This document shows, in pieces, positions 18,370 to 18,615 of a DNA stretch of 55,407 bases. The stretch's first letter is position 1. Each line of letters starts with the position of its first letter. The notes under the pieces were generated by a model. That model had not been told where the DNA came from, ran no database searches, and saw only the letters and a list, made by a program, of their open reading frames with translations. The stretch is from an uncultured Bacillales bacterium (GTDB lineage Bacteria; Bacillota_I; Bacilli_A; RF39; UBA660). The position numbers were made by a program, and so were the translations under genes. The stretch is taken from the NCBI GenBank assembly GCA_947165475.1, contig CAMVAN010000001.1:1-55407 (forward strand), written 5' to 3'.

Positions 18370-18615
18370 TTAATTCACTAATGGATTGAAATATAATAGT
18401 AAGAAGATGAATGCAAATAAGAATAATAAAAATATAGCCAAGACAACCATAATAGTCATTACAGAATGAATTACATCACCCTTTGTTTCCGGATTTCTTC
18501 CTATCGCCTCAGCCACTTTAGAGCCAAGTATTCCAATACCAATACCAAGACCCAAAAAAGCAAATCCAAGCATAAGCCCAACCGCTGTAATTGTATTTGA
18601 TAATATTGTTTCCAT
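18370..18615 (-). CDS. F-type c-subunit-like hairpin protein lacking the ion-binding carboxylate (81 aa)
   Basis: [22 protein letters not shown] aligns with the canonical [22 protein letters not shown] (GxGxGxG packing motif plus polar loop). Helix 2 is [28 protein letters not shown] and contains no Asp or Glu. Ala sits 17 residues after the loop Glu, where the canonical Glu is found. A GGAGGA RBS lies upstream. Confidence 0.8.

Follow-up and report, generated by a model that had tools for sequence, protein, structure and literature searches.

Sets of F1-like subunits that are additional to, and distinct from, those of the ATP synthase have been described in mycoplasmas as the Type 2 (G1-ATPase, Mycoplasma mobile gliding) and Type 3 (MIB-MIP) F1-like X0 ATPases. 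Both include alpha, beta, gamma and epsilon-like subunits, show a genetic or functional link to large surface proteins, and are believed to transmit a force driven by ATP to the other side of the membrane (PMC3369863, PMC11864180, PMC12994834). Their clusters consist of seven genes, which encode a protein with 12 transmembrane helices, a small cytoplasmic protein, gamma, epsilon, a large protein with two transmembrane helices at its C-terminus, alpha and beta (PMC12994834), and these motors acting on surface proteins were reported to lack any known equivalent outside the mycoplasmas (PMC3369863). The gene studied here encodes an 81-amino acid (aa) homologue of the c subunit of F-type ATPases and is located in contig CAMVAN010000001.1 (assembly GCA_947165475.1) of an uncultured Bacillales bacterium, of which positions 1 to 55,407 constitute the window, that is, the whole stretch of DNA that was analysed. 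It is the third gene of an operon of 11 genes in which F1-like subunits are encoded together with giant surface proteins. We consider it on balance probable that this c homologue no longer binds H+ or Na+ and that it belongs to a dedicated, ATP-hydrolysing rotary motor of the F type that would move no ions and would instead perform mechanical work on the surface proteins encoded with it.

The predicted product of the open reading frame (ORF) matches the Pfam family PF00137 (ATP-synt_C) over residues 11-73 with E = 5.8e-9 and 36.5 bits, as compared to a gathering score of 24, and on the basis of this match it is a true member of the c-ring subunit family. As in canonical c subunits, it forms a hairpin of two transmembrane segments with a Gly-rich helix 1 (GxGxGxG) and a polar loop of the R(N/Q)PE type, here GRNPETK, in keeping with the original prediction that helix 1 and the loop are canonical. 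None of the NCBIfam equivalog cut-offs for c subunits was reached (35.7 bits versus 71 for the best model; 25.6 versus 43.95 for TIGR01260). The protein was aligned by phmmer to five solved c subunits, those of Ilyobacter tartaricus (1yce), Fusobacterium nucleatum (3zk1) and the spinach chloroplast (4mjn), and c2 and c1 of Acetobacterium woodii (4bem), the last of which was its best match in the PDB (E = 6.1e-10). Helix 2 aligned without gaps to all five, and the residue standing under their ion-binding Glu was Ala60, located 17 residues after the loop Glu43, exactly where an Ala in place of the essential Glu had been predicted. The other positions that provide ligands in I. tartaricus are also occupied by hydrophobic residues (Q32 by Ile27, S66 by Ile61, T67 by Phe62 and Y70 by Phe65). 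The acidic residues of the protein are Glu2 at the outer end, Glu36 and Glu43 in the loop region, both of which are found in canonical c subunits too, and Asp47 at the start of helix 2, with none embedded in the membrane in either helix.

A homologue search rendered 120 close relatives (71-100% identical), and scanning GTDB with a single genome for each species rendered 277, the best 80 loci of which were retained for comparison of the gene surroundings. Column counts were taken over 179 distinct sequences of the family, 51-100% identical, and none of these carries Asp or Glu at the Glu column, which is occupied by Thr in 104 cases, Ala in 61, Ser in nine and Val in five; an Asn is found besides in locus L061. 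The acidic residue is also absent from the divergent full-length members found in a search of sequence representatives (P0138, P0144, P0149, P0152 and P0179). In that profile search, which covered 1.84 billion representatives, members of the family, fragments included, scored at least 59 bits and the first Glu-bearing single-hairpin c subunits at most 51 bits, which shows the putatively ion-blind proteins as a group separate from the Glu-bearing c subunits. Their hosts belong to two classes of Bacillota, and comprise uncultured Bacilli or "Mollicutes/Tenericutes" known from metagenome-assembled genomes (MAGs) and Clostridia (Lachnospiraceae, Oscillospiraceae and Eubacteriales), including the cultured Kineothrix alysoides (L045) and Hominiventricola filiformis (L048), as well as Candidatus Merdisoma sp. 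(L016).

The loss of the carboxylate is thus a conserved, family-wide trait and not an error or a mutation of one strain. A sequencing or assembly error, a recent strain mutation or the decay of a duplicated operon might be suspected from the metagenome-type contig and from the fact that c, alpha and gamma stay under the NCBIfam equivalog cut-offs, but this explanation can be regarded as refuted: the identical protein is present in four independent contigs of other samples, the 179 distinct relatives are intact, there are 277 matches in GTDB species genomes, synteny is conserved, and some genomes bear several copies. In addition, the c gene is under purifying selection, as judged by a median proportion of synonymous differences (pS) of 0.73, at which synonymous sites are saturated, against a proportion of nonsynonymous differences (pN) of 0.21, and by a dN/dS ratio (nonsynonymous to synonymous substitution rates) of about 0.2 in unsaturated pairs.

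The distribution of conserved residues along the protein is informative in this regard. The Gly motif of helix 1, the GRNPETK loop, Met1-Glu2, Thr8 and Phe76-Asn77-Pro78 are invariant in the family, whereas positions 55-61, around the old ion site, show the lowest conservation of the whole protein. Constraint is relaxed exactly there, and the pattern says that the ion site has been given up and that ring packing, the contact with the central stalk and the outer ends have been maintained, which is the reverse of what is seen in canonical c subunits. Position 59, a Leu in our protein, is the most variable column, with 10 residue types that include Asp or Glu in five and Gln in another five of the 179 sequences; these polar residues may be relics or neutral polar substitutions facing the lipid. 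An ion site shifted to this position was considered and rejected, given so few acidic residues in the most variable column.

It could also be the case that ions are still translocated, either through a non-canonical site made of Thr or Ser60 and backbone carbonyls, helped occasionally by an acidic residue 59, or in a ring of mixed composition into which c subunits of the housekeeping operon are recruited and which works with the a subunit of that operon. The Thr or Ser present at the column in 113 of the 179 sequences and the few acidic residues found one position earlier would fit the first possibility, and the second has a counterpart in A. woodii, whose c1, the best structural match of our protein, contributes a carboxylate-free hairpin to a working mixed ring with Na+ binding; moreover, the Lachnospiraceae among the hosts probably have a normal ATPase as well. 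Nevertheless, we regard either form of ion translocation as very improbable. Ala or Val occupies the column in 66 of the sequences, every other ligand position is hydrophobic, the flanking positions are the most variable of the protein, the opposite of what a functional site would show, and a neighbouring residue faces a direction that differs by about 100 degrees around the helix. Furthermore, the operon has its own complete set of subunits except a, and none of its proteins matches the subunit a family PF00119 or provides the conserved Arg of that subunit. Both halves of the ion path, the carboxylate of c and the Arg of a, are on this evidence absent from the operon, so that, as had been predicted, the ring would be unable to translocate ions in the normal way. 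Carboxylate-free hairpins are likewise packed in the rings that contain A. woodii c1, the V-type c'' or the multi-hairpin c subunits of archaea, but there the carboxylate is kept by other hairpins of the ring, and ions are still translocated against subunit a. The only c gene of our operon, in contrast, encodes a carboxylate-free hairpin and is accompanied by no a subunit.

All 11 genes of the operon are in the minus strand, with intergenic distances ranging from -20 to +10 nucleotides (nt), and they encode, in this order, a giant protein of 1777 aa, a 474-aa protein, c, a 256-aa stalk-like protein, alpha, gamma, beta, an epsilon-like protein, a small protein with up to five transmembrane helices (hereafter the 5-TM protein), a 237-aa protein and a second giant protein of 3245 aa. 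The order c, b(-delta), alpha, gamma, beta, epsilon is that of atpE-F-H-A-G-D-C in the canonical F1Fo operon (atpBEFHAGDC), from which the locus departs in lacking the c carboxylate and the a subunit with its conserved Arg, in the substitution and truncation found in alpha, in the apparent fusion of b and delta, in an epsilon without C-terminal helices, and in the presence of five additional membrane or surface proteins, two of them giants. Such large extracytoplasmic proteins are not known from ATP synthase operons. By the features that were considered, namely the c carboxylate, the a-subunit Arg and the alpha Arg finger, all of which are missing, the complex does not appear to be a functional ATP synthase, in agreement with the original prediction that it was unlikely to be an ATP synthase or an ion pump.

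Most of this gene set was found again in the same order, by tblastn and inspection of ORFs, in the 80 genome loci and in metagenome contigs; tblastn often fails to detect the b-like and 5-TM proteins because of their divergence, but ORFs of corresponding size are present at their positions. The order is permuted in a few loci, with the gene set kept, namely in L053/L054 (beta, epsilon-like, 5-TM, and then giant, 474-like, c, 237-like, giant) and in L085 (c first, followed by giant, 474-like, b-like and alpha). In these loci c stays with the genes for surface proteins, and the c gene can thus sit inside the surface-protein module.

With regard to the F1-like subunits, beta scores just above the atpD cut-off and bears the P-loop, the catalytic Glu and a DELSEED-type motif (EELSDND), all conserved in the family, and the gene for a recognisable gamma is syntenic in nearly all loci. 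The alpha subunit did not reach the NCBIfam cut-offs for atpA (421 versus 554 and 398 versus 484). In an alignment to alpha of Bacillus PS3, the Arg finger is replaced by Lys (GEKPAIN, around residue 350, versus GIRPAIN or GVRPAIN). This Lys is present in 53 out of 54 members of the alpha family that matched the pattern and in all eight unmatched members that were inspected, and a single Arg was found, in L047. About 55-60 residues are absent from the C-terminus of alpha, and its N-terminal helix, which in F-ATPases binds delta, is retained. The epsilon-like protein has the size of the N-terminal beta-sandwich alone, without the C-terminal inhibitory helices, and the consensus of its family resembles the N-domain of epsilon. 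Its alignment by hhalign to epsilon of Escherichia coli and PS3 is in register (residues 18-52 versus 18-53) but weak (P = 0.02, probability 2.3%), and PF02823 was matched, also weakly (E = 0.18), by one of 30 members; otherwise, profile searches of Pfam, NCBIfam and the PDB rendered no significant match. Position, size and these similarities lead us to infer that the 83-aa protein is epsilon-like.

The gene for the 256-aa protein occupies, between c and alpha, the place of atpF-atpH. No sequence relatives of this protein were found in profile searches of Pfam, NCBIfam or the PDB. An AlphaFold2 (AF2) model, which like that of the 5-TM protein was built from only 10-12 close relatives, a limit to its quality, shows a transmembrane helix that runs into a long helix (residues 3-73), a disordered linker, a helical bundle (104-207) and a small C-terminal beta domain made of strands at 212-252, with a predicted local distance difference test (pLDDT) score of about 90 over residues 141-210. 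When this model was compared by Foldseek to 350,542 PDB chains, the top 22 matches were all ATP synthase delta/OSCP subunits or mycobacterial b-delta, with weak scores (E from 0.045 to 3, TM-score from 0.13 to 0.38). Mycobacterial b-delta (PDB 7nkd and 7njk) combines in one chain a single transmembrane helix and a long helix with a globular part that resembles delta; it shares no sequence similarity with our protein, and the mycobacterial enzyme differs in having a separate b' chain and in being a normal proton-driven synthase. Because of these structural neighbours and of the position of the gene between c and alpha, a b-delta-like peripheral stalk is the best reading of the model. A stalk of this kind makes sense only where a stator has to resist a rotor.

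The 5-TM protein was detected by tblastn in some of the loci only, and in the loci that were listed the epsilon-like gene is followed by an ORF of the same size. It belongs to no Pfam family and has no relative in the PDB, and Foldseek found nothing, on a poor AF2 model (pLDDT 66). It is possible that it acts as a membrane stator or bearing in the place of subunit a. The idea that it is a degenerate a subunit, for which its KRLFIGY motif could be likened to LRLFGN of subunit a, was rejected, since the Arg is not conserved in the 48 members of the family, in which there is no invariant or near-invariant residue and mean column identity is 28%.

The remaining products of the operon are four transmembrane-anchored proteins. 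Giant 1, whose true start is probably Met23 (at about position 25318), is matched elsewhere by homologues of 1700-2350 aa at the syntenic position, and giants are also encoded downstream in other loci, in the place of giant 2. Giant 2 contains an ALK/LTK glycine-rich domain (PF12810, residues 1021-1251, E = 2.9e-40), a type of domain familiar chiefly from the receptor kinases of animals, and GLUG motifs (PF07581, around residues 1885-1912). No other named family was found in the surface proteins with Pfam and NCBIfam, giant 1 matching no family of either database and the 237-aa protein having no Pfam or PDB relative. The gene for the 474-aa protein always adjoins the c gene, and the 237-aa protein comprises little beyond a module that makes up the first ca. 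200 extracytoplasmic residues of the four proteins. This module was recognised by hhalign with probabilities of 94-97% in the pairs giant 1/474-aa, giant 1/237-aa and giant 2/237-aa proteins (96.9% for the 474-aa protein against the N-terminal region of giant 1, and 94% for the 237-aa protein against those of both giants). By these alignments the four proteins are paralogous in their N-terminal module, and they look like adhesin-type proteins built on a common membrane-proximal part.

Taken as a list of parts, and as far as sequence can tell, the operon thus encodes a complete rotary machine of the F type minus the ion path, plus surface proteins. In the mechanism that we favour, ATP would be hydrolysed on beta, whose catalytic motifs are intact, in an alpha3beta3 assembly to which alpha would supply a Lys instead of the Arg finger. 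Hydrolysis would turn gamma and the epsilon-like protein, which would hold on to the c-ring by its invariant GRNPETK loops, while the b-delta-like protein, probably together with the 5-TM protein, would keep alpha3beta3 stationary. The ring, with its fully hydrophobic waist and no a subunit facing it, could for these reasons rotate within the lipid with no need for protonation steps, and bearing and stator would be provided by the 5-TM protein and the single-pass anchors. Work would be delivered outside the cell to the four paralogous proteins, including the giants of 1777 and 3245 aa, whose shared N-terminal modules would probably attach to c at its invariant outer ends (Met1-Glu2, Thr8 and Phe76-Asn77-Pro78), and the output would be the movement or the conformational cycling of adhesin-like surface proteins. 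F1-like ATPases that drive surface proteins have a precedent in M. mobile gliding and in the MIB-MIP system (PMC11864180, PMC12994834).

The same parts might alternatively form a static anchor, in which the sole task of the c-like ring, alone or together with the 5-TM protein, is to hold at the membrane an F1-like ATPase whose work takes place on the cytoplasmic side, for instance the export, insertion or assembly of the giants, as FliI/FliJ do in type III export, rotation not being the output. The giant proteins would be the obvious clients of such a system, alpha and beta are distantly related to the FliI/SctN ATPases, the Lys finger suggests a slow turnover that could be tolerated in an assembly factor, and the mycoplasma Type 3 F1-like ATPase is largely cytoplasmic and labile (PMC12994834). 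On the other hand, the operon keeps the full rotor-stator set, consisting of a pair of alpha and beta for a heterohexamer, gamma, the epsilon-like protein and the delta-like stalk, whereas export ATPases work without a peripheral stalk or a c-ring; the c loop that would contact gamma and epsilon is invariant; the four surface proteins carry ordinary N-terminal signal-anchor helices, consistent with insertion by Sec/YidC; and the models for FliI/SctN stay far under their cut-offs (231 versus 619 for beta, 176 versus 379.5 for alpha, which are here encoded by separate genes). Altogether, we take the static anchor to be unlikely. The original prediction had left the function of the ring between a passive anchor and an uncoupled rotor; of these, the rotor is the one to which the evidence leans, because the loop that contacts gamma and epsilon is invariant and a b-delta-like stalk is kept, and the anchor stands as its rival.

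Several observations count against a motor that acts on surface proteins. The assignment of the delta-like part derives from Foldseek scores that are weak (E of 0.045 at best), that of the epsilon-like protein from an hhalign P value of 0.02, and known stalks use two b chains, as compared to the single b-delta gene found here. A further difficulty is the transfer of torque from a rotating ring to single-pass proteins, and the ring may be hetero-oligomeric and include housekeeping c subunits. Finally, the Lys finger may make the motor very slow, or make it work in a different way. The corresponding substitutions alphaR376K in E. coli and alphaR364K in thermophilic F1 reportedly slow the enzyme by orders of magnitude and do not abolish directional rotation. 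Rotation is described to persist, at lowered rate and torque, in F1 with Ala mutations of catalytic residues (PMC5380711, a review), and the Arg finger is retained in the G1-ATPase of M. mobile (PMC11864180).

The mycoplasma ATPases of Type 2 and of Type 3 can be considered the closest functional analogues of the system proposed here, given their analogous association with giant surface proteins and their hosts, which are low-GC relatives within the Bacillota. However, the mycoplasma clusters lack c, b and delta, while the operon encodes c, the b-delta-like and 5-TM proteins and four proteins anchored at their N-termini; the finger residue is Lys here and Arg in G1; and alpha keeps the N-terminal helix that is missing from Type 3 alpha (PMC12994834). 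The NCBIfam cut-offs of the Type 2 and 3 models were missed (glide_MMOB1660, 376 versus 600; MSC_0619_alpha, 306 versus 520; MSC_0618_beta, 405 versus 570; glide_MMOB1670, 379 versus 850), and the canonical atpA and atpD models outscored them on the alpha and beta of the operon. By these scores the cluster is not a member of the mycoplasma families, although it could represent an F-like ancestral state behind both Type 2 gliding and Type 3 antibody-evasion F1-like X0 ATPases, and it may help to explain the origin of those systems. Nor is it, judging from profile scores and from the missing c carboxylate and a subunit, an N-ATPase (TIGR03305/TIGR03324/TIGR03323), the product of a second F-type operon beside the housekeeping one, as the present operon may be too. 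In N-ATPases the Fo part is complete and translocates ions; it comprises subunit a and a c subunit with Na+ ligands, AtpQ and AtpR being added, and the cut-offs of the alt_F1F0 models for alpha, beta and gamma were missed by the operon (364 versus 750.5, 411 versus 752 and 24 versus 282, respectively).

The cluster is an apparently undescribed and widespread variant of the F-type rotary ATPase that is publicly annotated as an ordinary ATP synthase, and no publication on it was found in the full-text literature, a coverage from which most subscription journals are excluded. Its automatic annotation as a c subunit has kept the loss of function hidden. We put forward, as a tentative proposal, that it represents an unrecognised, widespread class of rotary surface machines that run on ATP in gut Bacillota and in which an ion-blind c-ring would serve as a mechanical rotor that moves or reshapes giant adhesin-like proteins, with possible roles in motility, in attachment and release, or in the remodelling of the surface. 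To our knowledge, every characterised rotary ATPase couples the rotation of its c-ring to an ion. A c-ring without ion site and without subunit a that is kept by strong purifying selection would thus be a natural "torque-only" rotor, and would bear on the question of what a c-ring serves for without ions. The idea of an F1 motor acting on surface proteins would be extended to common gut Clostridia and Bacilli, whose cultured carriers make the mechanism testable. Moreover, metabolic reconstructions of gut MAGs may credit these bacteria with an ATP synthase that is absent, or miss a surface machine relevant to colonisation. The coordinates of the genes are collected in Table 1.

Table 1. Genes of the operon that contains the c homologue, from upstream to downstream (positions in the window)
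Feature	Coordinates	Strand	Basis
Giant surface protein 1, 1777 aa as ORF, N-terminal transmembrane anchor	20051..25384	minus	ORF list, transmembrane scan
Transmembrane-anchored extracytoplasmic protein, 474 aa, paralogous N-terminal module	18624..20048	minus	One N-terminal transmembrane helix
c-subunit homologue, 81 aa, Ala60 at the position of the ion-binding carboxylate	18370..18615	minus	PF00137, alignments to solved c subunits
b-delta-like peripheral stalk protein (putative), 256 aa	17593..18363	minus	AF2 model, Foldseek, position between c and alpha
alpha-like subunit, 445 aa	16255..17592	minus	PF00006, E = 1.2e-73
gamma-like central shaft, 255 aa	15484..16251	minus	PF00231, E = 1.2e-23, 84.7 bits versus 39.9
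beta-like catalytic subunit, 455 aa	14114..15481	minus	TIGR01039 (atpD), 476.8 bits versus 462.85
epsilon-like protein, 83 aa	13882..14133	minus	Position directly after beta (20-nt overlap), size
Small polytopic membrane protein, 176 aa, 4-5 transmembrane helices	13355..13885	minus	Hydropathy scan
Transmembrane-anchored extracytoplasmic protein, 237 aa	12649..13362	minus	One N-terminal transmembrane helix
Giant surface protein 2, 3245 aa, N- and C-terminal transmembrane helices	2901..12638	minus	Transmembrane scan, Pfam
Possible 12th gene, 187 aa, N-terminal transmembrane helix	2341..2904	minus	4-nt overlap of its start with the stop of the 3245-aa gene

Some additional observations concern the surroundings of the operon. 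The 187-aa gene is followed downstream, at positions 1655-2251 of the minus strand, by a gene for a further small protein (198 aa) with an N-terminal transmembrane helix, and neither of the two products belongs to a Pfam family; the operon may extend to 12-13 genes. A few genes upstream of the operon, at 27617-29977 of the minus strand, a 786-aa HerA-like ATPase is encoded (DUF87, E = 1.5e-19, with weak TrwB/AAA_10 matches), which has no evident link to it.

In some genomes two or three copies of the whole cluster are present, as is the case for MAG Tb.RUG.141 (L010/L038/L049), BRZ_GB bin22 (L046/L066) and L3_060 maxbin.127 (L050/L067). These copies differ in their giant proteins, which suggests a diversification of the surface components. 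The size of alpha also varies among loci: genes for proteins of 600-980 aa were found in L051, L059, L070, L072 and L079, with long acidic tails of low complexity, rich in E, Q and V, at the C-terminus, whereas in L040 (642 aa) the acidic low-complexity tail is N-terminal instead. Inteins were considered for these long genes and rejected, since the core aligns without interruption over residues 1-440 and the surplus is the acidic tail.

Regarding public records of the c family, P0020, P0028, P0057, P0058 and P0061 bear names such as "F0F1 ATP synthase subunit C" or "F-type H+-transporting ATPase subunit c", and one of the five is binned as Ignavibacteriales, probably because of a mis-binned contig. 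The search of representatives also rendered c proteins made of 3-5 fused hairpins (P0156, P0158, P0161, P0163, P0169, P0170 and P0173; 229-435 aa). In several of these, among the hairpins checked at the Glu position, some carry the carboxylate and others Gln, Thr or Ser, and they constitute a separate class of partly carboxylate-free rotor subunits, unrelated to the 11-gene operon.

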